The notes below the pieces were generated by a model. That model saw only the letters and a program-made list of their open reading frames with translations. It did not search any database and was not told the DNA's origin. DNA of 35,721 nucleotides from Actinomycetota bacterium (GTDB taxonomy: Bacteria > Actinomycetota > Acidimicrobiia > IMCC26256 > BP-133): assembly GCA_030838815.1 (NCBI GenBank), contig JAUZEX010000700.1, positions 1-35,721 on the forward strand, read 5' to 3'. Below, in pieces: positions 4,986-29,520 of this stretch; positions within the stretch are counted from its first letter, which is position 1; every line of letters begins with the position of its first letter. Position numbers and translations under genes: made by a program.

Positions 4986-5026
4986 CAAACCTCCTATTTG
5001 GTTCCTTCGAGGCATTGTTCGAAATA

Positions 5027-10882: not shown

Positions 10883-10884
10883 GC

Positions 10885-12333
10885 ATGAAGCCTGCACGAG
10901 CATTCAGACGCCTCGCCGTCGCCGCTTCCGCCGTCGCCCTGACCGCCGGTGTGGGCGGGGGGTGGGCTGGGGCCGACACCGAGCAGGAGTTCCACTGGAG
11001 CCGCCTCGACGCCTCGATCGACGTCTCCACCTGGGCCGCCGGACAGGTCAGCGGGGTGGTGCGGGTCTGGGGCGCCCACGCTTTCTCCCACCTGGACGAT
11101 TCGCCCGCCGCCCGGGCCATCGGCTCGCCGATGGACGTGGGCATCCTGGCCACGGCCTCGGGATTCAAGGGCGTTCCGTACCCGCTGACTTCGGAGAGTT
11201 TGAGCCCCGGCGGGGCCGACAAGGCGCAGTTCGCCGACGCCTCGAAGAGCATCCCGGGCGTCGTCGACGCAAAGCAGGTGTTCTCCGCCGCGTCCACCAG
11301 GGCCAATCCTCCGGCGGCGGCGGCCGAGGGCGGCGGGCAGTCGGCCGTCACGCCCAACTTCACCGTCTCGAACTACCGGGCGAACTCCAACCTGGCCGAC
11401 GACGGGAACGGGAAGGTCGCCGGCCACGGCACGGTCTCCCTGGACCAGATCGTGATGGGGCCCCTCGCCGTGGGGAACGTGACCTCGCTGATCGAGGGCG
11501 CCACGGACGGGACTCAGGCGGGCACCAAGATGGCAGCCCGAACCCTGGTCACCGGGGCCACCGTCAACGGGATCCCGGTCGAGATCGGCTCTTCCGGCGT
11601 GACCGTCGCCGACCAACGGGGAGGCGGCGAAGGGGTGGCCGCCCTCAACGAGCAGATCAGCAGCGCCCTCAAATCCGCCGGGATCTTCGAGGTTTCCGTG
11701 GCCGAACCGAAGACATCGACCGGTCCGAACGGCCTGAGCACCGAGGCCGGTGGCCTGCGGGTCAAGTTCGTCCCGACACCCGAGATGAGCGGGGTCGTGA
11801 ACGCCGCCGTTCCGGTCGAAGCGGCCTTCGCCGCCGCCCGCGGAAACCTCCTCGCCACCGCCCGGGGCGAAGGCGGCTCCGACGACGGCTTCGGTGGCGG
11901 GGTTCTCGAGCCCGACCCCTCGTCCGTCATTCCGCCCGTGGCCCCGGGTGACGGCTCGGCCCCGTCGGTCTTTGGAGACTCCGGCTCGTCGGCGCTGCCG
12001 TCGGCCTCTTCGACCATGCCGGCGTCCGGCGGCACCGTTGGCGCCTCGGGCCTTTCGTCCGTCGCCGGCGCCACGTCGGACGGCCTGGGCACCGGCGTCT
12101 CCGAGTCCAGCGCCGCAACATCGCCGGCCGCCGCCCCCCCGGGTCCCACCGACCTTCAAGCCCAACCGATCACGGCCGTCCGCTGGAGCGACGCACCCTG
12201 GGTCGCCGCGCTGGCGCTGTTCAGCGCGGCCATCCTCGCCATCATGGTCGTCGCCGCCCGCCGCGGCCGTGCCGGTCTGGCACCGTCCAACCTCCGGCAG
12301 GCGATGGAGTCCCTGACCGGTGGGGCTTCATGA
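10885..12333 (+). CDS. Secreted protein of unknown function with a C-terminal membrane anchor
   Basis: ATG 10885 lies 2 nt after the SBP stop. Signal peptide MKPARAFRRLAVAASAVALTAGVGGGWAGA. Ser/Gly/Ala/Pro-rich stalk. C-terminal TM helix WVAALALFSAAILAIMVVAARRGR. I saw no LPXTG motif. Confidence 0.6.
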   Translation: MKPARAFRRLAVAASAVALTAGVGGGWAGADTEQEFHWSRLDASIDVSTWAAGQVSGVVRVWGAHAFSHLDDSPAARAIGSPMDVGILATASGFKGVPYPLTSESLSPGGADKAQFADASKSIPGVVDAKQVFSAASTRANPPAAAAEGGGQSAVTPNFTVSNYRANSNLADDGNGKVAGHGTVSLDQIVMGPLAVGNVTSLIEGATDGTQAGTKMAARTLVTGATVNGIPVEIGSSGVTVADQRGGGEGVAALNEQISSALKSAGIFEVSVAEPKTSTGPNGLSTEAGGLRVKFVPTPEMSGVVNAAVPVEAAFAAARGNLLATARGEGGSDDGFGGGVLEPDPSSVIPPVAPGDGSAPSVFGDSGSSALPSASSTMPASGGTVGASGLSSVAGATSDGLGTGVSESSAATSPAAAPPGPTDLQAQPITAVRWSDAPWVAALALFSAAILAIMVVAARRGRAGLAPSNLRQAMESLTGGAS

Positions 12334-12374: not shown

Positions 12375-12833
12375 ATGTCAGCCGCCGAATACGATGACCG
12401 GCTCCAACCGCTCGAAGCCGAACAAGCCATCGACGCTCGGGACGAGCGCAAGAGCCGACTGGCGGCGCTCTTCGCCGACCCGTTGTGGATCCTTCTCTTC
12501 CTCGGGGTGGTGACCATCGCCGGAGGGATGCTGGGCGTCTTCCTGTCCCTCACCCGGGTGCGCCCCGAGGTCGTCGTCCTCCGCCAGATCCCCTATGTGG
12601 TCAGCGCCATCGCCTTCGGAACGCTGGCCCAACTGGGCGCCTTCGCCTGCCTGGGCTTTTTCGCCTGGCGCGCCTTCGGCCACATGCGCCGGCTGACGTC
12701 GGAGCTCGAAGAGGCGGCCGCCGCCCTGATGTGGGAACGCGTCGCGACGTCGGAGGCGGACCGCCTCGGCCGCAACGCCGCTCCGCCGCCGTCCCGGACG
12801 GCCCCCCAGCCGTTGCGCAGCTCGGCCGGCTGA
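12375..12833 (+). CDS. Small membrane protein (two predicted TM helices), unknown function
   Basis: GGAGG RBS. Hydrophobic stretches LWILLFLGVVTIAGGMLGVFLSL and VVSAIAFGTLAQLGAFACLGFFAW. Confidence 0.55.
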   Translation: MSAAEYDDRLQPLEAEQAIDARDERKSRLAALFADPLWILLFLGVVTIAGGMLGVFLSLTRVRPEVVVLRQIPYVVSAIAFGTLAQLGAFACLGFFAWRAFGHMRRLTSELEEAAAALMWERVATSEADRLGRNAAPPPSRTAPQPLRSSAG

Positions 12834-16386: not shown

Positions 16387-16755
16387 ATGGATGACGAGGA
16401 ATTCCGTCCGATCATCGTCAAGGTCATCGGAGCGGTCGTCGACCAACCCGAGCTGAAGAAGCTGGCCGGCTCCGGGAAGGTTTTCGCCTTCGGGACGATC
16501 GACGGTGACGTGAGCTGGTACATCGACTGCTCCGGCGACCCCATCTTCTCCGAGGGCACGCCCGAGAAGTTCGAGGTGCGGGCGAAGATGTTGAAGGCCG
16601 ATTGGCTGTCGATGTTGAGCGGGAAGCTGTCGCCGACCCAGGCAATGCTGCGGAAGAAGCTCAAGGTCGAAGGATCGATCGCCGCCATCACCAGCCTTTC
16701 GATGGACGCGCTGCTGCGCACGTACAAGGAACAGATGGAGGACCAGACCGCATGA
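16387..16755 (+). CDS. SCP2 sterol-carrier-like domain protein
   Basis: 122 aa with an AAGGAG RBS. ...FEVRAKMLKADWLSMLSGKLSPTQAMLRKKLKVEGSIAAITSL is a typical SCP2 C-terminal pattern. Confidence 0.75.
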   Translation: MDDEEFRPIIVKVIGAVVDQPELKKLAGSGKVFAFGTIDGDVSWYIDCSGDPIFSEGTPEKFEVRAKMLKADWLSMLSGKLSPTQAMLRKKLKVEGSIAAITSLSMDALLRTYKEQMEDQTA

Positions 16756-17513
16756 TTCTCGAAGGCAAGGTCGGCATCATCACCGGGGCGGCGCAGGGCA
16801 TCGGGAGGGCCTACGCTCTGGCCGTCGCCGCCCAGGGCGCGAGCGTGGTGCTGGCCGACATCCAGGACGCCGGCCCGGCGGCGAAGGAGGTCGAAGCCGA
16901 GGGAGGCGATGCCCTGGCGGTCACCGTCGACGTGACCAAGTCAGAGTCGCTCGAGGCGATGGTGGCCAAGACCATCGAGCGCTTCGGGCGCATCGACTTC
17001 CTGGTGAACAACGCCGCACTCTACGGCGATCTGGAGCTCACCTACTGGGAGGACATCACTGACGAAGACTGGGACCGCGTCATGGCCGTGAACGTCAAGG
17101 GGATGTTTCTGGCCGCCAAGGCGGTGGCGCCCCACATGACCGAGCAGCGCTCCGGAAAGATCATCAACATCTCGTCGGGCACGGCCCACGCCGGCATCGT
17201 GGGCGCACTGCACTACGTCACGTCGAAGGCGGGCGTCATCGGGTTCACGCGGGCTCTGGCCCGGGAGCTGGGCGACTTCGGGATCAACGTGAACTGCGTG
17301 ACCCCGGGCTTCACCATGAGCGATGCCAGCGTGAAGATCATGCGCGAATCGGGAGCGGAATCGCTCGAGGACCTGATCGTCAGCGCACAGTGCTTCAAGC
17401 GGGCCGAGCAGCCGGGAGACCTCACGGGCGCCATCGTCTTCCTCGCTTCGGGCCTGTCCGACTTCATGACCGGCCAGATCGTGAACGTCGACGGCGGATG
17501 GGTGATGCACTAA
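16752..17513 (+). CDS. Short-chain dehydrogenase/reductase (candidate 3-hydroxyacyl-CoA dehydrogenase)
   Basis: ATGA overlap with the SCP2 gene. TGAAQGIGRA Rossmann motif, NNAA, catalytic Y-V-T-S-K, and a PG motif. Confidence 0.9.
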   Translation: MILEGKVGIITGAAQGIGRAYALAVAAQGASVVLADIQDAGPAAKEVEAEGGDALAVTVDVTKSESLEAMVAKTIERFGRIDFLVNNAALYGDLELTYWEDITDEDWDRVMAVNVKGMFLAAKAVAPHMTEQRSGKIINISSGTAHAGIVGALHYVTSKAGVIGFTRALARELGDFGINVNCVTPGFTMSDASVKIMRESGAESLEDLIVSAQCFKRAEQPGDLTGAIVFLASGLSDFMTGQIVNVDGGWVMH

Positions 17514-18877
17514 ACCGCGGGCCGCGCCGCGAAGAGCCGCCCGACCGCTCCCCGCGGTCGACGCGCCGCCGCAACCTCGTCATCGAGACGGCCGCCGGCC
17601 TGTTCCAGCAGTCCGGCTACCGGCGCACGTCGATGAACGACATCGCCGCCGAGTTGGGGTTCACGAAGGCCGCGCTCTACTACTACTTCGATTCCAAGGG
17701 CGCCCTGCTGGAGGCCATCGCGCTCTCGATCGGAGCCGAGCTACGGGATGGGATCCCCCCGCCGGACGAAGAGTCCCCGTCGATCCGGCTGCGGCATTTC
17801 GCCGAACATCACGTCTCGGTGATCGCCGATCGGCGGGCATTGTTCTCGGTCAGCATGCTGGAGCGGGCGGAGCTCGGCGAGGGCGGGCGGGCTCGCGTGA
17901 CCGAGGGTGAGCGCCAATACCTCCAGCAGGTCATGGAGATCATCAGCCGCCTCCCGCCGCGGCCCCCGGACGTCCCCGACGGGCAACTGGTGGCCGCTCA
18001 CGCCCTGGTGGCGATGTTGAATTCTCCGGCGGAGTGGTACCGACCCGGCCGGCTCACCCCCACCGAGGTGGCCGCCACGCTGGTCGACGTGTTCCGGAAC
18101 GGCATCGGCCGACCCGGTGCCGCCTCCGCCGTGACCGCCTCTGACCCTCGTACCAGCCAGCCGGCGCCGATCCCGGCGCCGGTCAACCCAGCGCCGGTCG
18201 ACATGGCGGCGGAGGGCAAGTCGAGGCGGGGACGGTGGGACGACCTCCTGTCGGTCAGCCTCGACGTCTTCCACGAGCGCGGCTACCACAGCACGACCCT
18301 GCAGCATCTGGCCGATGCCCTCGGCGTGACAAAGCCGGCGCTCTATTACTACGTCGACTCGAAGGCCGACCTGCTCGACGCCGTGGTCACCAGGAGCCTC
18401 GACCCCCTGGTCGAGACACTGAAGTGGTCAGCCGCCACCACGGACGACGGCTGGGAGCGGCTCCGGCTCCAGGTCCGGCTGACGGTGCAGCATCTCCACC
18501 GGGAGCGGGTCGCCTTCTGGGTGTTCCTCCACTCCGGGGCCTACGTCGACGACCGGGTCGGCCAGCGGATCGCCGACGCCAGCCGCCGGTTCGTCGCCCT
18601 GCTGCAGGAGACGTTCGACGCCGGGCGGGAGCAGGGCGTCTTTCGTGACGACATCGACCCGGTGGTGCTTTCCCGGGCGCTGGCGGGGATGCTGAAGGCC
18701 ACGGTGCGGTGGTTCAGGCCGAGCAGAGCCTTTTCGCCGGCCACCCTGGCCGAGCTCCTCTGCCAACTGACGCTCCACGGCTGCTGCGAGCCCGAGGACC
18801 GCGTGATCGACCTTTCCGATCGCCGGCCGACGTCGACCGTCACGCTCGGACGGCCCGATGTTGGCTGGCAGCCTTGA
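17498..18877 (+). CDS. Tandem double TetR-family regulator (two complete TetR units in one frame)
   Basis: HTH 1 is LVIETAAGLFQQSGYRRTSMNDIAAELGFTKAALYYYFDSKGALL. HTH 2 is LLSVSLDVFHERGYHSTTLQHLADALGVTKPALYYYVDSKADLL. They are joined by a Pro/Ala-rich linker with no stop codon. An internal ATG at 18203 could also start unit 2 on its own. Confidence 0.75.
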   Translation: MGDALNRGPRREEPPDRSPRSTRRRNLVIETAAGLFQQSGYRRTSMNDIAAELGFTKAALYYYFDSKGALLEAIALSIGAELRDGIPPPDEESPSIRLRHFAEHHVSVIADRRALFSVSMLERAELGEGGRARVTEGERQYLQQVMEIISRLPPRPPDVPDGQLVAAHALVAMLNSPAEWYRPGRLTPTEVAATLVDVFRNGIGRPGAASAVTASDPRTSQPAPIPAPVNPAPVDMAAEGKSRRGRWDDLLSVSLDVFHERGYHSTTLQHLADALGVTKPALYYYVDSKADLLDAVVTRSLDPLVETLKWSAATTDDGWERLRLQVRLTVQHLHRERVAFWVFLHSGAYVDDRVGQRIADASRRFVALLQETFDAGREQGVFRDDIDPVVLSRALAGMLKATVRWFRPSRAFSPATLAELLCQLTLHGCCEPEDRVIDLSDRRPTSTVTLGRPDVGWQP

Positions 18878-19472
18878 GGCCGGCGGCCTTCGGCGGGGGC
18901 CGCAGGGCGTTGACCCCGAGGCGGCTCGCCAGCTGGCCGAACTCCTCGGGCGACATACCCCGGCCCCGGCGGTACCAGCGGACGGCCGAGTTGGTCATGC
19001 CGACGAGGTTGAGCGCGGTGATCTTGGCCGGCACGTCGTCGAAGTCGCCCTGGTCGATGCCCTCCTGGATGATCGAGGCCAGTTGGTCCACGAACTGACG
19101 CTCTCCGGCCTCGAATCTGTCGCGCACCTTCGCCGGCAGGGCTTTGGTCTCCGCCAGGTAGACGGCGAAGATGTTGACGTTGCCGAGGACGAGTCGGGCG
19201 TGGGAGTCGAGGATACGGGCCACCTTCTCCGCCGGTGGCTCGGGGAGCCGCATGGCCAGTTCCATGTGGCTCAGCATCTCCGCCCCGGCGTTCTCGATCA
19301 CCGCGACGAGGATGTCCTCCTTGCTCTTGAACCAGTAGTAGAGCGCGGCCCGCGTGAACCCGAACTCGTCGGCGATGTCATTCAGGGTGGCTGTCCGGTA
19401 GCCCTTGGTGCGAAAGACGCGGGCCGCTACCCGCAGTATCTCCTCGCGCCTCCCGATGTCCGACTCCGCCAA
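18840..19472 (-). CDS. TetR/AcrR-family transcriptional regulator
   Basis: 210 aa. TTG start with GGAGG 7 nt upstream. HTH ILRVAARVFRTKGYRTATLNDIADEFGFTRAALYYWFKSKEDIL. The 3' end overlaps the convergent double-TetR gene by 38 nt. Confidence 0.85.
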   Translation of the reverse strand: MAESDIGRREEILRVAARVFRTKGYRTATLNDIADEFGFTRAALYYWFKSKEDILVAVIENAGAEMLSHMELAMRLPEPPAEKVARILDSHARLVLGNVNIFAVYLAETKALPAKVRDRFEAGERQFVDQLASIIQEGIDQGDFDDVPAKITALNLVGMTNSAVRWYRRGRGMSPEEFGQLASRLGVNALRPPPKAAGLKAASQHRAVRA

Positions 19473-19578
19473 CCCGCCACCTCCATCGTGCGATCCCGCA
19501 CCGTGTCGCGTCTAGCTTGCCCCATCGCGCTCGCCGGCACCGGTACTTCCCCAGTTTGCCCTTCTCCGCCCCACGTCT

Positions 19579-19599
19579 CTACTAACTTTCACGTAAGTT
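19579..19599. promoter_or_regulatory. Operator-like dyad C: CTACTAACT-N-AAGTT
   Basis: CTACTAACTTTCACGTAAGTT contains AACT-N8-AGTT. It shares TACTAAC with dyad A and GTAAGTTG with dyad B. Lies between the divergent TetR gene (19472) and the reductase operon (19648). Confidence 0.45.
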
Positions 19600-19647
19600 G
19601 AATAGGGGCTACCATATGAGGGTGCGAAGGGAAGTCTGGGGCGGGCG

Positions 19648-20661
19648 ATGAGCTTTCGGATCACCATCGCCAGGACCGGACGATCCTTCCCGGCGGAGGG
19701 GGAGGAGAGCCTTCTCGACGCCGCGCTGCGCCATGGCGTTCCCCTCCGGTACGGCTGCCGCCGAGGGAAGTGCTCGACCTGCAAACACCTGGTGGTCAAA
19801 GGTGAGGTCGACGACCACGGGATCTCGGCCTACGCGTTGCTCGATGACGAGCGCGACGAGGGAGTCACCCTGCTCTGCCAGGCTTTTCCCCGCAGCGACT
19901 GCCTCATCGAGCTGGTCGAAGACGGCGACGACGTTGACGTGGAGTTGCCGGTACCCCGCCTGGTCGGCGCCCGCCTCGCCGAGGCCACGGCGCTCTCCCG
20001 GAGCCTCTGGTCGGTGGTGCTCGAGCTGGACGAGCCGCTCGATTTCATCGCCGGCCAGTACGTCGAGGTCGCCGTGCCAGGGTTGCCTGGCGTCACCCGC
20101 CCGTACTCCGTAGCCAGCGCCGCCGGCGTGGGGGACCGTCTCGAACTGACGGTCAAACGCATCGAAGGTGGACGCTTCTCCGGCCAGCTCGGCTCGCTCC
20201 CGCCGGGCACGCCCACGACGGTGCGCGGGCCGTTCGGGGAGATGCATCTGCGCCGGAGCGGCCGACCGGTCACGCTGGTGGGCGCCGGCTCGGGCATCGG
20301 TCCGCTGCTGGGCATCCTCCGTACGCTGGCCGAAACCGAGCCGGCGCGCCCGGCGAGATTGTTCTACGGCGCGGCCACCCGCCGCGACCTGCCGTACGGG
20401 GACGAGCTCCGCCGGCTGGCCAACGCCTTGGCTTCCTTCGAATCGGTCATCACGCTCAGCCGGCCGGAGCCCGACGACGGCTGGGACGGGCCGGTCGGGC
20501 GGGTGGCCGCCGCCCTGGCGCGGTCGTTCGGCGACGAGTCCGCCATCGACGCCTACGTGTGCGGGCCTCCCGAGATGTGCGAGCACGTGTCGATGTTCCT
20601 CGAGGCCCGAGGGGTCCCGGGCCGCCAAATCCACGCCGACGGCTTCTACGCCGCCGATTGA
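19648..20661 (+). CDS. Ferredoxin-NAD(P)H oxidoreductase with N-terminal plant-type [2Fe-2S] domain (oxygenase reductase component)
   Basis: 337 aa. CRRGKCSTC...C cluster motif at the N-terminus, then RPYSVAS (flavin binding) and LVGAGSGIGPL (NAD(P)H binding). Confidence 0.9.
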   Translation: MSFRITIARTGRSFPAEGEESLLDAALRHGVPLRYGCRRGKCSTCKHLVVKGEVDDHGISAYALLDDERDEGVTLLCQAFPRSDCLIELVEDGDDVDVELPVPRLVGARLAEATALSRSLWSVVLELDEPLDFIAGQYVEVAVPGLPGVTRPYSVASAAGVGDRLELTVKRIEGGRFSGQLGSLPPGTPTTVRGPFGEMHLRRSGRPVTLVGAGSGIGPLLGILRTLAETEPARPARLFYGAATRRDLPYGDELRRLANALASFESVITLSRPEPDDGWDGPVGRVAAALARSFGDESAIDAYVCGPPEMCEHVSMFLEARGVPGRQIHADGFYAAD

Positions 20662-20676
20662 ACCGGAGAGGCAGTC

Positions 20677-20811
20677 GTGTTCCAGGTGCTGTGGGAATGC
20701 GGGGCGTGCGAGCACATCTGGGGTGCGCCCCCCACCGAGATGTTCACGGCCTGCCCGGCCTGCGGGAGCGACGACGTCGAGCAGGGCGACCAGCCCGTGG
20801 CCGTGAACTGA
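20677..20811 (+). CDS. Unlisted 44-aa zinc-ribbon miniprotein (FmdB-like CxxC...CPxCG)
   Basis: My own translation: VFQVLWECGACEHIWGAPPTEMFTACPACGSDDVEQGDQPVAVN*. C8-x2-C11-x14-C26-x2-C29. Near-total G/C at third positions. It fills the gap between the reductase and PaaA-like genes. Confidence 0.55.
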   Translation: MFQVLWECGACEHIWGAPPTEMFTACPACGSDDVEQGDQPVAVN

Positions 20812-20826
20812 GATCAGGAGGAGAGC

Positions 20827-21612
20827 ATGCCGATCGCTGAAGAGCTCGAGCTGGCGGCGCAGCCGATGCAGTTCGAGGCCGGTGACGAGCTTCCGCCCGA
20901 GTACCGGAAGCTCCTGACCACGCTCTTCTACCATCACGCCGAGGTGCTCACCCCGACGCTGGCCTACGAGCGGTTCATCCGCCATCTCGTGGATGTAGGC
21001 ATGGAGATGGCTCCCGACGCCGAGGCGAAGCTCCGGCTGGCCAACTTCTACGCCGAAGAGATCCGGCACGGCTACCTCTTCGCCAAGCTCTACACGGCCA
21101 TCGATCCCGACCTTCCCGGCCAGATCCTCGAGGCGTCCGGGCTCACCAGGGGGATGACCGCCGAAGACCCCGGCACGAGCCCCTTCGCCCAGGCCATCGA
21201 AGACTGGATCGACCTGTCCCTGTTCAACTTCCTCATCGACGGCGAAGGGTGCTGGCAGATCTCGGAGTGGGAGACCTCGTCGTATGCGCCCCTGGCCCGG
21301 ATCGCCGGCCAGGTGTCGCGAGACGAGCGGGGCCACTCGAACATGGGTTACCTCCATCTCAAGCGGGCCGTGCAGAAAGATCCGGCGGCCCACAAGGTGG
21401 CGCAGGGGCGGCTGTACGACAAGTGGTACCCCGTGGCCCTCGACACGTTCGGCCGTTCGGAGTCGTCCCGCAACCTCGCCTATCGGCGCTGGTCGCTGAA
21501 ACGCCGGTCCAACGAGGACCTGCGGCAGGACTTCGTGGCCCACGTCAACCCGATGCTCGAACGGCTGGGCTTCGAGCTCCCGCCCTACCAGCACAACCGG
21601 CACTTCCTGTGA
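20827..21612 (+). CDS. PaaA/PaaC-family ferritin-like diiron protein, paralog 3
   Basis: 261 aa with an AGGAGG RBS. EXXH motifs EEIRHG and RDERGH. PaaA-type C-terminus (WYPVALDTFGRS...LRQDFVAHVNPMLERLGFELP). Confidence 0.85.
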   Translation: MPIAEELELAAQPMQFEAGDELPPEYRKLLTTLFYHHAEVLTPTLAYERFIRHLVDVGMEMAPDAEAKLRLANFYAEEIRHGYLFAKLYTAIDPDLPGQILEASGLTRGMTAEDPGTSPFAQAIEDWIDLSLFNFLIDGEGCWQISEWETSSYAPLARIAGQVSRDERGHSNMGYLHLKRAVQKDPAAHKVAQGRLYDKWYPVALDTFGRSESSRNLAYRRWSLKRRSNEDLRQDFVAHVNPMLERLGFELPPYQHNRHFL

Positions 21613-22949
21613 GCGCCAGCGCAGTGCCGCGGCGAACGTACGCCAAAGCCGAGACGTGGTCCCGGGAGGAACTCGAAGCCTTTCAGCTGCGCAAGCTGCG
21701 GCGGGTCATGGCGCGGAACTGGGAGCACAACCCGTTCTACCGGGACCTCTGGACGCAGGCCAGGGTTTCCCCGGACGACATCCAGACGCTGGCGGACTTC
21801 CGCCACAGGGTGCCGGCGATCGAGAAGCGCGACTGCCTAGCCGACCAGTCGGACTTCCCACCGCTGGGCCGGCGCCTCGGCGTTCCCCCGGAGAGCGTCG
21901 CCCAGATCCACCTGACCAGCGGCACGACCGGTGTGGGTCAGGAGGCCTGGGGTCTTACGCAGGCCGACGTCGAACTCTCGGCCACGCTGTGGCTCTACCA
22001 GTACCACTGGATGGGCCTCCAACGGGGCGACGTCGCCTTCTATTCGATGCCGGTCGCCTTCTTCGCCAACGGCCTGTCGGCCGACTACGCGGCCAAGAAG
22101 ATGGGGATGGTCTCCTTCAACCTCTTCGGGATGGACAAGGAACTCGTCTTCCGGCTCATGGAGCGGTTCCAGCCGCACTACGTCTACGGGACCATGGCCA
22201 TGCCGTCCATGGTCGGCACCGACGACGACAAGCCCCGGGAGCGCTTCCACCGGCTCAAGGGCCTGTCCGGTGCCCTCATGGGGGTCGAGACCATCAAGAA
22301 GGTGACGGACCTCTGGGGCGCACCGCTCTACGAGATGTACGGCTGCACCCAGGCCTCCTCGGTGGTCGGTGCCACGTGCGAGCACACGGCGGTCGTCGGG
22401 GACCGGGGCGGGATGGTCCACTTCCTGGAAAGCCACTTCATCGTCGAGTGCCTCAACCGGGAGACCGGCGAGCCCGCCGGCCCGGAGGAGGACTGCGAGA
22501 TCTTCCTCACCACGCTCGACCGGGAGGCATCGCCGGCGATCCGGTTCCGGATGCACGACAAGGCGACGTTCCTCCCCCACACGGCCTGCACCTGCGGGCG
22601 GCCCTTCAACGGGTACCGCGTCGGCACGATCGCCCGCTGGGACGACATGATGAAGATCAAGGGGATCAATATCTGGCCGTCGATGATGGACGACATCGTC
22701 ATGATGCACCCGGAGGTGCACGAGTACCGGGGTTACGTCGAGGTCGACGCCGCTCGGTCCCGGGAGGTCATGCGCATCGTCGTGGACTTCAAGCCGGACA
22801 CCGCCTCTGAACAACGGGCCCGATTCCTGGAGGGACTCCGCCACGAGGTGAAGGCGACGACGTTCGTGACCCCGACGGTCGAGGAGGCCCCGGAGCCGCT
22901 GCCGGGCTTCGCCTTCAAGCCCGCCCGGTGGACCGACAACCGCCGCTGA
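21609..22949 (+). CDS. PaaK/F390-synthetase-family adenylate-forming ligase, copy 2
   Basis: GTG 21609 overlaps the upstream stop (GTGA). LRKLRRVMARNWEHNPFYRDLWTQARVSPDDIQTLADFRHRVPAIEKRD, LTSGTTG, and MKIKGINIWP. The track ORF from 21249 adds an out-of-frame-looking extension. Confidence 0.85.
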   Translation: MSASAVPRRTYAKAETWSREELEAFQLRKLRRVMARNWEHNPFYRDLWTQARVSPDDIQTLADFRHRVPAIEKRDCLADQSDFPPLGRRLGVPPESVAQIHLTSGTTGVGQEAWGLTQADVELSATLWLYQYHWMGLQRGDVAFYSMPVAFFANGLSADYAAKKMGMVSFNLFGMDKELVFRLMERFQPHYVYGTMAMPSMVGTDDDKPRERFHRLKGLSGALMGVETIKKVTDLWGAPLYEMYGCTQASSVVGATCEHTAVVGDRGGMVHFLESHFIVECLNRETGEPAGPEEDCEIFLTTLDREASPAIRFRMHDKATFLPHTACTCGRPFNGYRVGTIARWDDMMKIKGINIWPSMMDDIVMMHPEVHEYRGYVEVDAARSREVMRIVVDFKPDTASEQRARFLEGLRHEVKATTFVTPTVEEAPEPLPGFAFKPARWTDNRR

Positions 22950-22966
22950 CGGCAACGAGGAGCGAG

Positions 22967-23200
22967 ATGCAGATCAGCCGGCAGTTGGCCATCCAGAAGG
23001 TGTGGGACTCTCCCGACGTCGTCCCCGAAGTGGTCGAGGCGCTCCAGGCCATGCCCGACGCGTTGTGGGATGCCGCTCCCGGCCTCGCGGAACTGCGGGA
23101 GGCGGCCCGGCCCTTCTGCGAATCGGCGGGCTGCGACGTCGAGGAACTGGAGCAGATCCTCAGCCGGCACGTCGGCAACACCTGGTGGCGACCGGAGTGA
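22967..23200 (+). CDS. Hypothetical 77-aa protein, small paralog A
   Basis: ATG 22967 follows GAGGAG. Paralogous to the next ORF, sharing a VW(D/E)..D.VP.V...L.A..D..W...P.L..L pattern. Confidence 0.5.
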   Translation: MQISRQLAIQKVWDSPDVVPEVVEALQAMPDALWDAAPGLAELREAARPFCESAGCDVEELEQILSRHVGNTWWRPE

Positions 23201-23427
23201 CTGGAGAGCGGGAGCTGATCCGCCACCGGGTATGGGAGGCGTCGGACTGCGTCCCCGGAGTGTGCGACGTGCTGGCCGCCGTCAGCGACGAGGAGTGGCG
23301 GACGGTGCCCGACCTGCGGACCCTGGCCGCCGCCCACCGCTCGGACCTGGCCCGCCACGGGACGGACGAGGACGAGTTCGTCCTCGTGACGGCCCGCTGG
23401 TCGGAGTCCGCCGAGGGGGTTGCGTAG
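23197..23427 (+). CDS. Hypothetical 76-aa protein, small paralog B
   Basis: GTG 23197 overlaps the stop of paralog A (GTGA). Its TAG is immediately followed by the GTG of the Mo-hydroxylase gene. Confidence 0.5.
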   Translation: MTGERELIRHRVWEASDCVPGVCDVLAAVSDEEWRTVPDLRTLAAAHRSDLARHGTDEDEFVLVTARWSESAEGVA

Positions 23428-25704
23428 GTGCTCGGAAAGCCGATCCTTCGGGTCGAGGACGCGCCGCTGCTGCTGGGAGCCGGCCTCTGGACGGACGACC
23501 TGGTGCTGCCGGGTCAGCTCCACGTCGTCTTCGTCCGCAGCAACGAGGCCCACGCGCTGGTCCTCGCCGTCGACACCGACGATGCACGACAGGTTCCGGG
23601 GGTGGTCGGCGTGTGGACCGCCGAAGACCTCGACCCGCCGCCCGCCATACCCACCGGGGCCGGGTATCTGCCGCTCCCGGGTCTGGAACAGCCGGTTCTG
23701 GCCCGCCACCGGGTTCGCTACGTGGGTGAGCCGGTGGCGGCGGTGGTGGCCGAGAGTCGTGCCGCGGCGGTGGATGCCGCCGAGGCGGTCGTCGTGACCT
23801 ACGACCCGCTCCCGGCCGTGGTCGATCCGTCGGCGGCGATGCGGGATGACGCACCGACGCTGTTCCCGGACCTCGGGACCAATGTGATCGTCGACGAGAA
23901 CTCGGACCCCGTGCCCGACGGCTTCTTCGACGAGGCAGACGTCATCGTCGACGTGGAGAACGTCAACCACCGGGTGGCTTCCGTGCCGATGGAGCCCAGG
24001 GCGGTGGTGGTCGGGGCCCATCCGGAGACCGGTGAACTCACACTCTGGCTGACGAGCCAGCACCCCCACAAAGTGCGCGACGACGTGATCGCCCTCCTCG
24101 GGCTAGACGACGACGAGTTGCGGGTCATCGCCCCCGAGGTCGGCGGGGGGTTCGGGCCAAAAGCCATGCTGCATCCCGAAGAGGTCGTGCTCGTCATGCT
24201 GGCTCGATTGCTCGGGCGGCCGGTGAAATGGTGCGAGACCCGCAGCGAGCACATGGTGGCCACGCAGCACGGCCGGGCCCAGGTCCACCGCTGGCGCGTC
24301 GGAGCCAAGAGCGACGGAACGCTCGTGGCCATCGCCGGCGATGTCCTCGGTGACGCCGGGGCCTACCCCAGCCTGGCCGCACGGCTGGTCTCGGTCACCG
24401 CCCAGATGGCGCCGGGGTGTTACCGCATCCCGCGGGTGCACCTCCGCGGCCGGGTGGTCGTCACCAACACCACCCCCGTCGGGCCGTTCCGCGGTGCCGG
24501 TCGCCCCGAGGCGGCCTTCTCCATCGAGCGGGCCGTCGACGAGGTGGCCCGACGCCTGGCCCTGGACCCGGTGGAGGTGCGCCGGCGGAACTTCATCCGC
24601 CCGGACGAGTTCCCCTACACCACCGCCACGGAGATGACGTACGACAGCGGTGACTACGAGGCGGTGCTCGACGCCCTCGTCGGCGCGCTGGACCTCGAAA
24701 CGCTTCGCAAGGACCAGGCGCAACGGTTGGAGCGCGGTGGCCCGCTGCTCGGCGTGGGCATCGCCACTTACGTGGAGATCTCCGGCTCGCTGGGTCTCGG
24801 TGAGGACGCCGTCGTGGAGATCATCGAGGGCGGCCGGGTCGAGGTGCGCACCGGCACGTCTCCCCACGGCCAGGGCCACCGGACGGTATGGGCCCAGATC
24901 GCCGCCTCCCTCCTCGGCGTCGACGTGGAGTCGGTCGACGTGGTCCACGGGGATACCCGGCTCGTCCCCCAGGGGGGCGGCACGACCGGGAGCCGTTCCG
25001 CCCAGTTCGGCGGTTCGGCCGTGTTCCGGGCCTCCGAGCTCATGGTCGAGCGTCTCCGGAGTCTGGCCGCCGATCTGCTGGAGGCGGCGCCGGGTGACAT
25101 CGAGTTGGCCGGCGGCGCCGCCCACGTCCGGGGCGCGCCGGCGATCAGCGTCCCGTTCGCCGACCTTCGGGCGGCGGCAGTCGACGAGGAGTCGCTGCGC
25201 ACCGCCTTCTTCTTCGACCAGGACAACTGGACGTACCCTGGGGGCGCGCACGGCGTGGTGGTCGAGGTGGACACCGAAACCGGCCTGGTGACGCCGGTGC
25301 GGGTGGTGGCGGTGGACGACTGCGGCACGATTCTCAACCCCTTGATCGTGGAGGGCCAGGTCCACGGCGGCGTCGCCCAGGGTCTGGCCCAGGCCCTCTG
25401 GGAGGAGGTCCAATACACCCCGGAGGGCCAGCCGCTGACGACGACGTTGCTGGACTATCTGGTGCCGTCGGCCTGTGAGGTGCCGCCCATCGAGACGATG
25501 ACCGTCGAGACTCCGTCGCCTCTCAACCCGCTGGGGGCAAAGGGCATCGGCGAGGCGGGGGCGGTGGGGATGACCCCGGCCGTGGTCAACGCCGTGCTCG
25601 ACGCGCTGGCGCCGCTGGGAGTGCGGGACCTGGCGATGCCGCTGACGCCCGAGCGGGTCTGGCGGGCAGTGGCCGAAGCCCGGGGAGACGGTATCCGGAC
25701 GTGA
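23428..25704 (+). CDS. Molybdopterin-dependent hydroxylase large subunit (xanthine dehydrogenase/CoxL-like family)
   Basis: 758 aa. N-terminus GKPILRVEDAPLLLGAG.W..D, PFRGAGRPEA active-site-loop region, and C-terminal PLNPLGAKGIGEAG. I see no N-terminal [2Fe-2S] domains. Confidence 0.85.
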   Translation: MLGKPILRVEDAPLLLGAGLWTDDLVLPGQLHVVFVRSNEAHALVLAVDTDDARQVPGVVGVWTAEDLDPPPAIPTGAGYLPLPGLEQPVLARHRVRYVGEPVAAVVAESRAAAVDAAEAVVVTYDPLPAVVDPSAAMRDDAPTLFPDLGTNVIVDENSDPVPDGFFDEADVIVDVENVNHRVASVPMEPRAVVVGAHPETGELTLWLTSQHPHKVRDDVIALLGLDDDELRVIAPEVGGGFGPKAMLHPEEVVLVMLARLLGRPVKWCETRSEHMVATQHGRAQVHRWRVGAKSDGTLVAIAGDVLGDAGAYPSLAARLVSVTAQMAPGCYRIPRVHLRGRVVVTNTTPVGPFRGAGRPEAAFSIERAVDEVARRLALDPVEVRRRNFIRPDEFPYTTATEMTYDSGDYEAVLDALVGALDLETLRKDQAQRLERGGPLLGVGIATYVEISGSLGLGEDAVVEIIEGGRVEVRTGTSPHGQGHRTVWAQIAASLLGVDVESVDVVHGDTRLVPQGGGTTGSRSAQFGGSAVFRASELMVERLRSLAADLLEAAPGDIELAGGAAHVRGAPAISVPFADLRAAAVDEESLRTAFFFDQDNWTYPGGAHGVVVEVDTETGLVTPVRVVAVDDCGTILNPLIVEGQVHGGVAQGLAQALWEEVQYTPEGQPLTTTLLDYLVPSACEVPPIETMTVETPSPLNPLGAKGIGEAGAVGMTPAVVNAVLDALAPLGVRDLAMPLTPERVWRAVAEARGDGIRT

Positions 25705-26606
25705 AGATCATCGACATCCACAGCCACTGCGTGTCGGGGAGCCGTCCGGCGGCCGACGTGGCCGGCGACCTCCTCCGATTGGCCGACCATGGCCTCGAGC
25801 GGTTGATGGTGATCATGGCGCCGGCCTTCGGGCGATCACAGGAGGAGATCGCCGCCCTGTTCCCGGAGGTGGCCCGCGACGTCGCCGCCCGTTCCGACGA
25901 CTTCGAGCTGTCGTTCGGCCTGAAGCTGCTCGACGCCCTCGGCCCCCGTCGCGATCTCGTGGCCCCCTACCTGGCCTTCCACACGTACTTTCCGGAAGTG
26001 GCGCGGGGCGGCGGCATCGGACCTGTGAGGGCCGTGCTCGACGAACTCGACGGCGTCGTGGCCGGGATCAAGCTCCACTACTTCGCGCTGGGGCCGGACG
26101 ATCCCATGGTCCGGCACTTCGGGGTGACGGATTGGGACCAGGCGCGGTTCGACGCCTTCACGGCCGCCCTGCTGGCCGAGGCCCGGGAACGGGAGATTCC
26201 CGCTGTCGTCCACGTGGACCTCCGGGACGCCGGGCCGGCCTTCGTGGACCTGGTCCGGCCCTACTCCGACGTGGCGTTGTGCCTCTGCCACTTCGGGTAC
26301 AGCCGGCGGCTATGCGCCGAGGTGCTTGAGGAGCTGCCCTGGCTGGTGACCGACATGTCGGGGATCGAGCTGCACCAGAGCATGTACGAGCGGTTGCCGG
26401 CCTATCACGAGTTCGTCACCCGCTTTGCCGGACGGGTGCTCTACGGCTCCGACCAGTACGTGTGCGACACCGCCGCGCTGCAGGGGGCATGGGGCCTCCT
26501 CGACGCCCTGGGACTGGGCGTCGAGGTCGACGAGCAGGTCCGCTACGCCAACGCTGAGCGGTTCCTCCGGCGGGAGTCGCGCCGGTCGGGCGTCAGCTTC
26601 CGGTAG
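25701..26606 (+). CDS. Amidohydro_2-type metal-dependent hydrolase/decarboxylase (TIM barrel)
   Basis: GTGA overlap with the upstream gene. IIDIHSHC at the N-terminus, later HVD, CHFG and GSDQY motifs consistent with PF04909-type enzymes. Confidence 0.75.
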   Translation: MKIIDIHSHCVSGSRPAADVAGDLLRLADHGLERLMVIMAPAFGRSQEEIAALFPEVARDVAARSDDFELSFGLKLLDALGPRRDLVAPYLAFHTYFPEVARGGGIGPVRAVLDELDGVVAGIKLHYFALGPDDPMVRHFGVTDWDQARFDAFTAALLAEAREREIPAVVHVDLRDAGPAFVDLVRPYSDVALCLCHFGYSRRLCAEVLEELPWLVTDMSGIELHQSMYERLPAYHEFVTRFAGRVLYGSDQYVCDTAALQGAWGLLDALGLGVEVDEQVRYANAERFLRRESRRSGVSFR

Positions 26607-26919
26607 CGCCGGGCTCCGCGTCGTCGAGCTGGAGGAAGCGGGACGTGACCCGCACGATGTCGCCGTCCACCTCCGCCCGTCCCGCATACGAAGTGAACGT
26701 CACCAGGATGTCCTCGACCGACACGTCCTCGCCGACCTCGTCGGACAGCTCCTCGACGTCCACGGCGATCTCGTCAGGGGCCTCCAGCATCCAATAGGCG
26801 CCCCGGTCGGTAATGGTGACGGGGTGACCGGAACGGCGCATCAGGGCGACGATGGCGTCCCCTTCGGTGCTCTTCATGAGTGCGACCCGAACGAAGTCCG
26901 CCCCGTGTTCGACAGCCAT
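26593..26919 (-). CDS. Soluble diiron monooxygenase coupling/effector protein (MmoB/DmpM family)
   Basis: 108 aa with ITDRGAYWMLEAPDEIAVDVEELSDEVGEDVSVEDILVTFTSYAGRAEVDGDIVRVTSRF, the typical MmoB/DmpM pattern. Confidence 0.85.
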   Translation of the reverse strand: MAVEHGADFVRVALMKSTEGDAIVALMRRSGHPVTITDRGAYWMLEAPDEIAVDVEELSDEVGEDVSVEDILVTFTSYAGRAEVDGDIVRVTSRFLQLDDAEPGATGS

Positions 26920-26920
26920 C

Positions 26921-27931
26921 TCAGTTCACCCCCGCCGGGACGCCCAAGCTGGATCCGGCCAGCAGGGAACGCCAGGCCGCTTCCACCGTTGAGCGGGCCT
27001 CGCCGGTGTCGACGCCGACCCGCTCGGCCACCGGGGCCAGGGTCTCCATAGCGGCGACGATCTCCGGGTACCAGCTCGTGAGCCATCCTTCGACAAGTCC
27101 CCGGTTGTGCTCCCCGTGGGTCTCGTCGTCGAGGACCAGGCTGGCGAACGACACCATGGCGGCGATGTTTAGCTGCCGGTCGTTCTCGGCCTCGCCCAGG
27201 ATCGCCGGCGTGGTCACGTCGCGATGGGCAGCGGCCGCCTGCCAGAGCAACTCGTTGAAGAGGAACCGGCTGAGGAGTGGTTCCACCAGGAGGTTGACGA
27301 CGAGCGCCACCTCGGCCCAGTCCGATGTGGCGTTGATGTGCTCGACCAGCGCCCGGAGGCCCTGGAGGGCCGGGTCTTCGAGCCAACGCGAAAGGCGGAC
27401 GTCGGCGCCGACCGGCACCCCGGCCTCGGCAAGGTCGTAGTGGTAGAAGACGATGTCCTGGGCGTGCCGCTCCTTGTCCGAGGAGTTGAGGATCAACGTC
27501 AGCATCACCATGTCCGACAGCGCGATTCCCGCCGCGTGCATCAGCGCCCGGGAGAGGCCTCGCTCGAAGAAGGCGGCGGGGACGTAGACATCGCCGATCA
27601 CGCCCTCGGCCCATTCCGCCGGCATCCGGCTCAGCCGACCGGCGTCGCGGGCGGAGGCCAGGGCCCGCTCCAGGCCTCGTTCCTGTTCGGCCTGGCGCTT
27701 GATGTAGGGCCGTTGCCAGCGCTGCGCGGGGTCCCGGAAGGCGTACCAGTTCTCCGACCGGAGGGCGGTGCTGTCGGCCGGCCACCCCGCCCGCTTGGCG
27801 ACGGGATGGTCCATCGACGTCTCCAGCGGCAGGATGTACTGATTGAGCGCCTCGTACTCCGAGAGCCTCCGCCCCATCGGGGTGATGTAGAAGAAGTCGC
27901 GGGGGCCGTCGAAGGGACCCTTCTCGCTCAT
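26921..27931 (-). CDS. Soluble diiron monooxygenase beta (small) subunit
   Basis: ATG 27931 (MSEKGPFDGPRDFFYITPMGRRLSEYE...NWYAFRDPAQRWQRPYIKRQ) overlaps the alpha-subunit stop (ATGA). About 336 aa. The rest of the 854-aa track ORF is the out-of-frame shadow of the alpha gene. Confidence 0.8.
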   Translation of the reverse strand: MSEKGPFDGPRDFFYITPMGRRLSEYEALNQYILPLETSMDHPVAKRAGWPADSTALRSENWYAFRDPAQRWQRPYIKRQAEQERGLERALASARDAGRLSRMPAEWAEGVIGDVYVPAAFFERGLSRALMHAAGIALSDMVMLTLILNSSDKERHAQDIVFYHYDLAEAGVPVGADVRLSRWLEDPALQGLRALVEHINATSDWAEVALVVNLLVEPLLSRFLFNELLWQAAAAHRDVTTPAILGEAENDRQLNIAAMVSFASLVLDDETHGEHNRGLVEGWLTSWYPEIVAAMETLAPVAERVGVDTGEARSTVEAAWRSLLAGSSLGVPAGVN

Positions 27932-29481
27932 CGCGCCGACCCTCCATTCTGCGACTCGCCGTAGACGCGGGCCGGGTTCTCGATGGCGACGTCGTGCCGG
28001 CGGATGTCGTCGATGGTCCAGAGACGGTCGGACTCGAGGTGGGGCTGCCCCAGCAAGGTCTTTCCGTCGGCCCGCAGCAGCCCCTGCTTGATGATGAACT
28101 CCGAGAGGCTCCAGCCGTCGTAGCGTGTGTAGAAGGGCTTCCGGGGGAACTTCTCCGGGAACATCTGGAAGGCCATCTGGCAGAAGATCGAGCAGAACGA
28201 GTACCACTCGCCGTCCAGCTGTTCGAACGACGCCTCCCCCTCGTAGGGATCGGGCAGGTAACAGGGGGAGTTGCAGACCTGGCAGATGGGCGGCAGTTTG
28301 CCGCCCGGGAGGAGGCCGAACGGCGTCGCCCCGCTGGCCGGGTCGCTGGCCTCCTTGTACTGCTCCCAGAACTTCCCATAGGTCGAGTACCAACCGGGGT
28401 ACTTCTCTTCGAGCCACTCGAAGTCCCGGGGGCCCAACGGATCGAACCGATTGATGGCCAGGGGCCAGGCGCCGAAGTAGAAGACGGCCGAGGCGTGGCC
28501 CGCCAAGCGGCTGTGATCGCGGGCGAACTCCGCCGAGGCCGGCGGCTCGAGGCCGAACGGCTGCAGCCGGCCCATGTAGGCACCGACGAAGTTCTCCCAG
28601 ACCCACTCGTCCCAGATCTCTGCGTAGGAGCGAGCCCGGTTCGTCGGCATGTAGTCGTAGAGGACCCCGAAGTACCCGTTCAGCAGCACGCTGAACTGCA
28701 GGAAGGAGCCGTCGACCTCCGGCTGGAGCATCGGCAGGTTGTCGGGCTCGGACAGCACGGCGGCCAGGCCGGCGTAGCCGTTGGCCATGTGGCGGGCCTC
28801 GTCGGATTGAATGCTGAGGAACACCGTGGGTGTGACGTGGTCGGCGTTGGCGGCGGCAAGTTCGGTAACGGCGATGAAGATGGGGTTCGTGTAGGCGGTC
28901 TCCGCCATGGCCTGGAAGGAGATGGCGATGGTCATCGGGTCTTCGTTCCAGAGGCCCTCGGTGAAGGCGTGCATGGGGCCGAAGATCGGGAGGTCCCGGT
29001 CCCGCAGCTCGAAGGCCCGAGCGAACGCCTCCGGGTCCTCCCAGTGCTTCGCCCAGTAGCGCTGGAGGTACGTCTGCTGGTTGAAGTGACGGACCTCGTC
29101 CATCACCTGGGCCATGTAGCCGGATTTGAGCTCGGGGTTGTCGAGGGAATCCATGCACACCCGGGCGCCCTGCATCGCGCCGAGCTCCAGCTGCGTCAGG
29201 ATCGGCAGCATGAACTTGAGCGTCTCGATCCAACCCCGGTCCGCCCGGTCCGGCTGCCCGACCCGGTTGATGACGTCGGCGATCGAGCCGTACATCCGGT
29301 CGTCCTTCTCCTCCTCCATGGAGGAGTACTGCCGGATCAGGTGCTTGAACGGGTCCTTGGTGTGCTTCGGGATCTTGTACTTCGTCGGCCTCGGGTACGC
29401 CGTCTGGTGATACGTAGGGCTCCAGTCGAGGCCCTTCACGCGGTCGTGGACTGCGTTGAGACGTGTCACGGAAGACCTCAT
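27928..29481 (-). CDS. Soluble diiron monooxygenase alpha (catalytic) subunit
   Basis: Diiron motifs MDEVRH and SIQSDEARH. Also SMEEEKDDRMYG, DFEWLEEKYPGWY and DGKTLLGQPHL. Start set at ATG 29481 (AGGGGG upstream), although GTG 29511 is also possible. Confidence 0.9.
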   Translation of the reverse strand: MRSSVTRLNAVHDRVKGLDWSPTYHQTAYPRPTKYKIPKHTKDPFKHLIRQYSSMEEEKDDRMYGSIADVINRVGQPDRADRGWIETLKFMLPILTQLELGAMQGARVCMDSLDNPELKSGYMAQVMDEVRHFNQQTYLQRYWAKHWEDPEAFARAFELRDRDLPIFGPMHAFTEGLWNEDPMTIAISFQAMAETAYTNPIFIAVTELAAANADHVTPTVFLSIQSDEARHMANGYAGLAAVLSEPDNLPMLQPEVDGSFLQFSVLLNGYFGVLYDYMPTNRARSYAEIWDEWVWENFVGAYMGRLQPFGLEPPASAEFARDHSRLAGHASAVFYFGAWPLAINRFDPLGPRDFEWLEEKYPGWYSTYGKFWEQYKEASDPASGATPFGLLPGGKLPPICQVCNSPCYLPDPYEGEASFEQLDGEWYSFCSIFCQMAFQMFPEKFPRKPFYTRYDGWSLSEFIIKQGLLRADGKTLLGQPHLESDRLWTIDDIRRHDVAIENPARVYGESQNGGSAR

Positions 29482-29520
29482 CCAAACCCCCTGCAACGCC
29501 GGATACCGCACGCGGCTACT

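Follow-up and report, generated by a model that had tools for sequence, protein, structure and literature searches.

A divergent PaaA-type diiron protein encoded in an eight-gene actinomycetotal operon: a putative variant of the PaaA and BoxB acyl-CoA oxygenases

To our knowledge, the characterized diiron oxygenases of acyl-coenzyme A (acyl-CoA) thioesters are of two kinds only, PaaABCE and BoxAB, and we know of no small helical subunit for BoxB. PaaE is a class IA reductase, with its FNR part at the N terminus and its ferredoxin at the C terminus; BoxB is about 470 amino acids (aa) long, and BoxA is a [4Fe-4S]/FAD reductase. PaaA works in a PaaA2B3-4C2E1 complex with bridging PaaB and with PaaC (PMC4498308). 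BoxB is monomeric, has no PaaC-like structural subunit, and is served by a separately encoded, loosely associated reductase (PMC4498308), so a lone oxygenase is not in itself unprecedented. Here we analyze a 35,721-nucleotide (nt) stretch of DNA from an Actinomycetota bacterium (contig JAUZEX010000700.1; G+C content, ~69%), called the window below, in which a gene for a PaaA-type protein, PAA3, lies among genes for a reductase, a four-cysteine (Cys4) mini-protein, and a PaaK-like ligase. An earlier note had read these four genes, at positions 19648 to 22949, as a stripped-down, differently wired module built around a lone oxygenase. We find that they form the 5' half of an operon of eight genes that has a TetR-family regulator gene beside it. 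This operon probably encodes both a variant of the PaaA/BoxB-type diiron acyl-CoA oxygenase and the enzymes that supply it.

PAA3 (261 aa; 20827 to 21612, plus strand, as are all genes of the operon) matches Pfam family PF05138 with an E value of 7e-18 and contains the motifs EEIRH and DERGH. Its scores against the profiles of the orthodox families all fall short of the cutoffs, with 60.3 bits against TIGR02156 for PaaA (cutoff, 280), which is below the equivalog level, 27 bits against the PaaC profile (cutoff, 133), and 21 bits against TIGR03225 for BoxB (cutoff, 499). When the PDB was searched with the PAA3 sequence, PaaA ranked first (E value, 4e-13), followed by SSO1313 (4MUD) and then BoxB. 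The AlphaFold2 (AF2) model of PAA3, with a predicted local distance difference test (pLDDT) score of 90.5, has PaaA chains as its closest folds (template modeling [TM] scores of 0.70 to 0.72), SSO1313 and BoxB as the next closest, and PaaC as the last (TM score, ~0.6).

The residues that bind iron in PaaA have counterparts in PAA3. Residues E78, H81, D138, E167, and H170 align to PaaA E72, H75, D126, E155, and H158, which places the two EXXH motifs, reported earlier as intact, on the PaaA iron ligands E72/H75 and E155/H158, and E39 is matched to PaaA E42 through a common H-x-E motif. All six residues (E39, E78, H81, D138, E167, and H170) are invariant across the PAA3 family; in the alignment, E. 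coli PaaC is without four of the six.

Close homologs of PAA3 (67 to 97% identity) number only 9 among 5.8 billion proteins, all of them metagenomic. A search of 1.84 billion cluster representatives returned 370 at E values of ≤1e-3 and 18 at ≤1e-30, and a scan of metagenome contigs gave only three weak 27-residue matches. In a neighbor-joining tree (123 sequences, 40 bootstraps), PAA3 and its close homologs were monophyletic in 39 of the 40 bootstraps, and the wider clade, which takes in fused proteins of ~390 aa as well as P0093 and P0095, left out E. coli PaaA in 38 of 40 and each PF05138 paralog of the window in 37 of 40. The subcutoff profile scores and this exclusion run counter to a place for PAA3 within the orthodox clades, which the earlier note had named as grounds for refuting its reading. 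PAA3 is a predicted PaaA-type catalytic subunit of a separate, rare clade beyond the orthodox families. A literature search, whose cover did not extend to subscription journals, turned up no paper on this clade or on the PAA3 gene set, in keeping with the supposition that the set had not already been characterized.

The operon runs from 19648 to 26606, with successive junctions of +15, +15, -4, +17, -16 (or -4), 0, and -4 nt. The tight packing and the sequence motifs described for its first four genes were all confirmed, as was the overlap of the ligase GTG start with the TGA stop of PAA3 (GTGA, 4 nt), by which the two genes are translationally coupled. The packing continues past 22949 through four further abutting or overlapping genes up to 26606, so the block from 19648 to 22949 does not stand as a unit, and "stripped-down" or "minimal" does not describe an operon that adds two small-subunit genes, a molybdenum (Mo)-cofactor gene, and an amidohydrolase gene. 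The TetR-family regulator gene (18840 to 19472, minus strand; TetR_N and TetR_C_24) is divergent from the operon, and the divergent pair of TetR and reductase genes also occurs in loci L005 (70% identity) and L038 (72%). No inverted repeats were present in the TetR/reductase intergenic region, and a promoter and terminator scan of 19300 to 27000 returned no sites, a scan of this kind being uninformative at 69% GC. Two further loci, from Actinomycetota MAG083 (L005) and from forest soil (L039), have the identical eight-gene order save for one added RidA-family gene. This RidA/YjgF (Ribonuc_L-PSP) gene lies between the PaaA-like gene and the ligase gene, at ~10800 to 11217 in L005 and 879 to 1292 in L039, and is missing at that point in the window, where the PAA3 and ligase genes overlap by 4 nt.

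Directly 3' of the ligase stop, with an AGGAG ribosome-binding site, is the gene for SMALL-A (22967 to 23200), a 77-aa all-helical protein and putative small subunit of the oxygenase. It is overlapped by the gene for its tandem paralog SMALL-B (23185 to 23427, with the GTG start at 23185 or 23197), whose stop abuts the GTG start of the Mo-cofactor gene. The two proteins (77 to 80 aa) share 33% identity, and the pair is present in the window, L005, L006, and L039, with the linkage of the ligase, SMALL-A, and SMALL-B genes held in all four of these close loci. SMALL-A has a G+C content at third codon positions (GC3) of 0.88, with 0.21 nonsynonymous (dN) and 0.92 synonymous (dS) substitutions per site, and SMALL-B is 66% identical to its L005 ortholog, with a dN of 0.27 and a dS of 1.04; the GC3 values of 0.88 to 0.93 and dN/dS ratios of ~0.2 to 0.26 for the two genes indicate purifying selection. 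The AF2 model of SMALL-A (pLDDT, 91) consists of six short helices. Its comparison with the PDB by Foldseek gave no fold match (best E value, 1.3) and returned no PaaB chain, and Pfam at E values of ≤1 yielded no family for SMALL-A, for SMALL-B, or for the fused domain described next.

The ~390-aa relatives of PAA3 carry an N-terminal extension of ~125 residues that the short relatives lack, and within it the first ~75 residues are homologous to SMALL-A (BLASTP E values of 1e-7 and 2e-6). The fusion of this N-terminal domain to a PaaA-like domain occurs in ~35 database proteins and in 18 of the loci fetched, mostly proteobacterial. In P0093, the nearest other cluster (46% identity to PAA3), a free-standing 119-aa SMALL homolog is encoded directly 3' of the oxygenase gene. 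Gene fusion and shared neighborhood are classic signs of physical partnership, and because homologs are fused to the PaaA-like domain in relatives and the genes lie in the same neighborhood, SMALL-A and SMALL-B are likely subunits of the PAA3 oxygenase, plausibly of a new type that does the structural job of PaaB and PaaC. The identification of the SMALL proteins as PaaB itself was rejected, in that BLAST with E. coli PaaB, Pfam at E values of ≤1, and Foldseek all came back empty of PaaB.

The description of the oxygenase as "lone" does not survive these results, given two conserved small open reading frames (ORFs) after the ligase that are likely subunits and two ligand-complete paralogs elsewhere in the window. 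The absences reported alongside it do hold. BLAST queries with E. coli PaaB, PaaC, and PaaD, together with Pfam, matched nothing in the window, leaving no PaaB- or PaaD-like ORF there, and no ligandless partner was found in it, all three PF05138 proteins of the window keeping their ligands and none matching PaaC.

The reductase that heads the operon (337 aa; 19648 to 20661) comprises Fer2 (residues 5 to 81), FAD_binding_6 (109 to 199), and NAD_binding_1 (210 to 315) domains in Pfam, and its translation holds CRRGKCSTC, RPYS, and GAGSGIGP. Residues 110 to 333 align to residues 9 to 244 of E. coli PaaE and residues 4 to 93 to PaaE 263 to 354; that is, the halves are swapped, and both this alignment and the Pfam order bear out the observation that the domain order is opposite to that of PaaE. 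The top NCBIfam match is MmoC, at 187 bits, which does not reach the cutoff of 500; BoxA scores 23 bits (cutoff, 459). NCBI and JGI annotate a 100%-identical protein as "propane monooxygenase reductase component." Relatives outside the ortholog group whose context was read (56, 44, and 41% identity) all lie inside soluble diiron monooxygenase (SDIMO) operons, beside MmoB and hydroxylase genes. SDIMO alpha, beta, and coupling genes are also present ~6 kb from the reductase gene on the opposite strand, and with its Fer2-FAD-NAD order the protein falls among the SDIMO reductases. The reductase is, by these comparisons, of SDIMO type (MmoC/PrmB) by descent.

The neighboring SDIMO gene set (26593 to 29511, minus strand) consists of alpha (27928 to 29511), an MmoY-like beta (26921 to 27931), and coupling protein (26593 to 26925) genes, recognized by Phenol_Hydrox and MmoB_DmpM, with no reductase gene, and the same reductase-less layout is found in L005. 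The set converges on the operon with a 14-nt overlap. By tblastn, the 35.7-kb window encodes no FNR-type reductase besides this one. Given its descent from SDIMO reductases and an SDIMO hydroxylase that has none of its own, the reductase would at least be shared between the two systems, and it most likely also serves the convergent hydroxylase. The description "differently wired" is thus not borne out as an independent rewiring; it has a simpler origin in an SDIMO-descended reductase that is at least shared with the SDIMO and is not a dedicated reinvention for PAA3. That the reductase also reduces PAA3 we infer from its place 15 nt upstream of the Cys4-PAA3 gene pair in two genomes. The survey of homologous neighborhoods upheld the proposed grouping only in part, with the Cys4-PAA3 pair kept in four of four close loci but the reductase adjacent to it in only two of four informative loci.

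The 44-aa Cys4 protein (ZN; 20677 to 20811) has the motif C8-x2-C11-x14-C26-P-x-C29-G. Its ORF has a GC3 of 0.93 and dN/dS pairs of 0.17/0.83 relative to L005 and 0.21/1.13 relative to L006; the four cysteines and a C-terminal EQxDQPVxVN are invariant among three orthologs, and the ORF lies directly upstream of the PaaA-like gene in all four close loci (the window, L005, L006/L001, and L039). By composition, constraint, and placement, it is a real gene, specific to the clade of PAA3. PaaD is built of a DUF59/SufT-like domain followed by a zinc ribbon, and no ORF of this DUF59 type was found in the window. Against Pfam, the Cys4 protein gave zinc-ribbon matches that were subthreshold only (Zn_ribbon_PaaD, 15.6 bits; cutoff, 27), and hhalign with the PaaD zinc ribbon gave an insignificant probability of 9%.

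Rubredoxin knuckles (CxxCG...CPxCG) stand ~29 residues apart. The spacing in the Cys4 protein is 14 residues, and the rubredoxin family was not among its profile matches, both of which favor an ordinary zinc ribbon. In Mycobacterium and Acidimicrobiia-type loci (L021 to L026), a 64-aa Fer4 ferredoxin holds the slot that the Cys4 ORF holds here, and by analogy with this position the Cys4 protein may relay electrons. It would be either a small rubredoxin-like relay or a zinc-stabilized structural or assembly factor.

The fourth gene (LIG2; 21609 to 22949) encodes a PaaK-like adenylate-forming acid-CoA ligase with AMP-binding and AMP-binding_C_2 domains, a TSGTTG P-loop, and the motif RWDDMMKIKG. 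It scores 142 bits against TIGR02155 for PaaK (cutoff, 646), which is short of equivalog status, with the PaaK-type architecture kept. Its closest cultured homolog is from Nocardia rhamnosiphila (60% identity; positions 1092 to 2444 of locus L040, JBEYBD010000047). The gene preceding that Nocardia ligase (L040, 35 to 1018) encodes a reductase with the order of PaaE and phthalate dioxygenase reductase, the FNR part being N-terminal and the ferredoxin C-terminal, and the contig ends just upstream.

The last two genes of the operon encode the large subunit of a Mo-cofactor hydroxylase or aldehyde dehydrogenase of the CoxL/XDH family (23428 to 25704; Ald_Xan_dh_C, MoCoBD_1, and MoCoBD_2) and an Amidohydrolase_2 protein (25701 to 26606; PF04909). 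The top NCBIfam match of the former is the archaeal-type glyceraldehyde dehydrogenase alpha subunit (658 bits; cutoff, 790), and neither a CoxS-like [2Fe-2S] small subunit nor an FAD medium subunit was found for it in the 35.7-kb window. The amidohydrolase gene overlaps the Mo-cofactor gene by 4 nt and is kept in L005 and L039.

Two more PF05138 genes lie ~15 kb upstream and are divergent from each other: Paa1 (4263 to 5015, minus strand) and Paa2 (5125 to 5913, plus strand). Paa1, Paa2, and PAA3 share 27 to 31% identity with one another and fall into separate clades; all three retain the E/H/D/E/H ligands, and Paa1 and Paa2 match PaaA, not PaaC. Immediately 3' of the two paralogs, 5919 to 6683 (plus strand) encodes a conserved 254-aa protein with a subthreshold hot-dog match only. 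In L006/L001, the Cys4-PAA3 pair is flanked by a Paa2 ortholog (71% identity) and by an ortholog of this 254-aa protein.

Taken as a whole, the window is an island of genes for the catabolism of CoA thioesters. It also encodes a second PaaK-like ligase, enoyl-CoA hydratases, MaoC and hot-dog hydratases, a thiolase, a short-chain dehydrogenase/reductase (SDR), an acyl-CoA dehydrogenase, a branched-chain-type ATP-binding cassette (ABC) transporter, and four TetR regulators. A 495-aa ORF at 17390 to 18877 (plus strand) is a tandem-duplicated TetR, with two TetR_N and two TetR_C_24 domains. Amid the ABC solute-binding and permease genes are two plus-strand ORFs with no Pfam family, at 10822 to 12333 and 12375 to 12833, which have L005 counterparts at 57% and 62% identity. 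At 32147 to 34210 (plus strand), a single 687-aa ORF joins the E1 alpha (E1_dh) and E1 beta (Transket_pyr and Transketolase_C) portions of a 2-oxoacid dehydrogenase; L017 has a homolog of it (41% identity) at a distance of 7 kb from its PaaA-like gene.

Distant loci of the PAA3 family recurrently hold an SDR ~50% identical to that at 16755 to 17513 of the window and a hydratase ~39% identical to that at 30294 to 31064, and TetR regulators, AMP-forming ligases, CoA ligases, and acyl-CoA dehydrogenase recur there as well. These recurrent neighbors across the family support a CoA-thioester substrate, and the gene contents hint at branched or rearranged carbon skeletons and not at phenylacetate. 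As particular substrates, phenylacetate, 2-hydroxyisobutyrate or isobutyrate, and N-heteroaromatic acids were considered and set aside, none being supported beyond context. Distant relatives, fused or not, are often near B12-dependent acyl-CoA mutases, either two-subunit or fused in the manner of IcmF (L002, 5378 to 7003; L026, 1 to 305), and are also followed by a conserved ORF of 145 to 170 aa with no assigned family.

In the pathway we propose, the PaaK-like ligase would convert a carboxylic acid to its CoA thioester, as suggested by its family and by its translational coupling to PAA3. The acid could perhaps arise when the Mo-cofactor dehydrogenase oxidizes an aldehyde, a step that may follow the SDIMO reaction. 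PAA3 would bind two irons through E39, E78, H81, D138, E167, and H170, consistent with the conservation of these ligands and with the predicted fold, and would use O2 to oxygenate the thioester, by epoxidation or hydroxylation, acting with SMALL-A and/or SMALL-B in place of PaaB and PaaC, a role to which the gene fusion and neighborhood point. The Fd-FNR reductase encoded by the first gene of the operon, which most likely also feeds the SDIMO hydroxylase, would deliver electrons taken from NAD(P)H, and the product would go on to hydratase, dehydrogenase, and thiolase reactions, the genes for which surround the operon. The genomic context argues against an orthodox phenylacetyl-CoA substrate and would suit a short acyl-CoA that is branched or alicyclic.

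Several observations weigh against this assignment. The equivalence of PAA3 E39 and PaaA E42 rests on the H-x-E motif, in a region where the MAFFT alignment is gapped and ambiguous. The "lysine bridge" of PaaA, formed by residues K68 and E49 (PMC4498308), is not kept in PAA3, which has F74 and A46 at these positions. As for the supply of electrons, no FNR reductase is encoded within 18 kb in L006, which has the Cys4-PAA3 pair, the orthologous TetR and reductase genes of L038 are followed by unrelated genes and not by the Cys4-PAA3 pair, and distant loci of the PAA3 family lack an adjacent FNR-type reductase, some having the 64-aa Fer4 ferredoxin instead. Moreover, in the close clade the SMALL genes accompany the ligase and not PAA3, from which they are 9.5 kb away in L006, and PAA3 might pair with Paa2, its L006 neighbor.

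An alternative is a reductase that serves the SDIMO only, with PAA3 fed by a Cys4 relay coupled to an unlinked reductase, or by a generic ferredoxin, and with cotranscription merely coregulating two steps of one pathway. Such an arrangement would suit the PAA3 relatives that have no adjacent FNR-type reductase, the Fer4 ferredoxin that holds the Cys4 slot upstream of the oxygenase gene in L021 to L026, and the Rieske ferredoxin that is encoded in L006, with a CoxS-like protein, ~6 kb from the Cys4-PAA3 pair, and the closest reductase homologs outside the ortholog group are all SDIMO components. We consider it unlikely, however, in view of the two genomes in which the reductase gene sits 15 nt upstream of the Cys4-PAA3 pair and ~6 kb from the opposite-strand SDIMO genes, and of a Cys4 protein whose x14 spacing is unlike that of rubredoxin and which matches no rubredoxin family. 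The converse arrangement, a self-contained minimal module of four genes with a dedicated reductase, a zinc ribbon, a homomeric lone PaaA-like oxygenase, and a ligase, appears improbable. Although the four genes are tightly packed, in the same order in L005, and the monomeric BoxB shows that an oxygenase can do without a structural subunit (PMC4498308), the tight packing extends over four more genes, relatives carry homologs of the SMALL proteins in one polypeptide with the oxygenase domain, the reductase descends from those of SDIMOs and neighbors an SDIMO that has none of its own, and the reductase adjacency is missing in L006 and L038.

We give very little credence to the pairing of PAA3 with its paralogs Paa1 and Paa2 in a hetero-oligomer that would resemble PaaA-PaaC but have metal sites in both partners. 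The L006/L001 arrangement, in which the Cys4-PAA3 pair lies beside the orthologs of Paa2 (71%) and of the 5919-to-6683 protein, speaks for such a pairing, and the ligands are kept in all three paralogs; but in both the window and L005 PAA3 is >15 kb from Paa1 and Paa2 and in another operon, the identities are only 27 to 31% across separate clades, and PAA3 relatives in other phyla have no such paralogs.

We accordingly retain the operon as the probable source of a PaaA/BoxB-type variant. New in it are the small helical subunit, which occurs free, duplicated, or fused, the Cys4 protein specific to the clade, and the position of an SDIMO reductase gene at the start of the operon. More tentatively, and as a possibility that we would not yet back, PAA3, the SMALL proteins, and the Cys4 protein may constitute an unrecognized class of diiron acyl-CoA oxygenase with a quaternary design of its own, acting on nonaromatic (branched or alicyclic) acyl-CoA, its all-helical subunit being fused to the catalytic domain in marine and soil Proteobacteria and its reductase, in this lineage, shared with an SDIMO. 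If this were so, one reductase would feed two unrelated diiron oxygenases of a single catabolic route, and it would be unusual for one electron-transfer component to be reused, module-like, by both an SDIMO and a PaaA-type enzyme. A third oxygenase clade, with subunits unlike those of the other two, would broaden the known chemistry of O2-dependent attack on CoA thioesters, and a helical domain so far unannotated would gain both a function and a partner. The occurrence of the fused relatives beside B12-dependent acyl-CoA mutases in many environmental Proteobacteria hints at an unrecognized route for branched-chain or quaternary-carbon acids. The labels that these genes now carry ("phenylacetate-CoA ligase," "propane monooxygenase reductase," and "1,2-phenylacetyl-CoA epoxidase") are jointly misleading.

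Among known systems, PaaABC(D)E of E. coli and Pseudomonas (PDB 3PW1 and 4IIT) has in common with this locus the PF05138 family, the PaaA fold, and the six iron-ligand positions, as well as a PaaK-family ligase alongside and crotonase, dehydrogenase, and thiolase genes around it; it also uses an NAD(P)H-[2Fe-2S]-flavin reductase, a feature that gene position suggests for PAA3. In contrast, PAA3 is only ~27% identical to PaaA and does not keep the lysine-bridge residues, and in place of a ligandless PaaC, a PaaB, and a DUF59-type PaaD, its window has two helical proteins of 77 to 80 aa and the 44-aa Cys4 protein, with a reductase whose ferredoxin domain is N-terminal and whose descent is from SDIMOs. 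BoxAB (Azoarcus; PDB 3PM5) is likewise a diiron acyl-CoA oxygenase of the same superfamily that operates without a PaaC-like subunit, but BoxB, at ~470 aa, is much longer than the 261-aa PAA3, and BoxA is a reductase of another type.

The reductases of SDIMOs (MmoC, and PrmB/MimB of propane and phenol monooxygenases) share the Fer2-FAD-NAD order with the reductase described here, and MmoC is its top family, whereas its gene stands apart from the hydroxylase genes and heads the operon of a PaaA-type oxygenase. Finally, SSO1313 of Sulfolobus solfataricus, a structural genomics entry (PDB 4MUD), is only ~20% identical to PAA3, but it too is a short (~235-aa) stand-alone PF05138 protein and is the second-best match of PAA3 in both sequence and structure.

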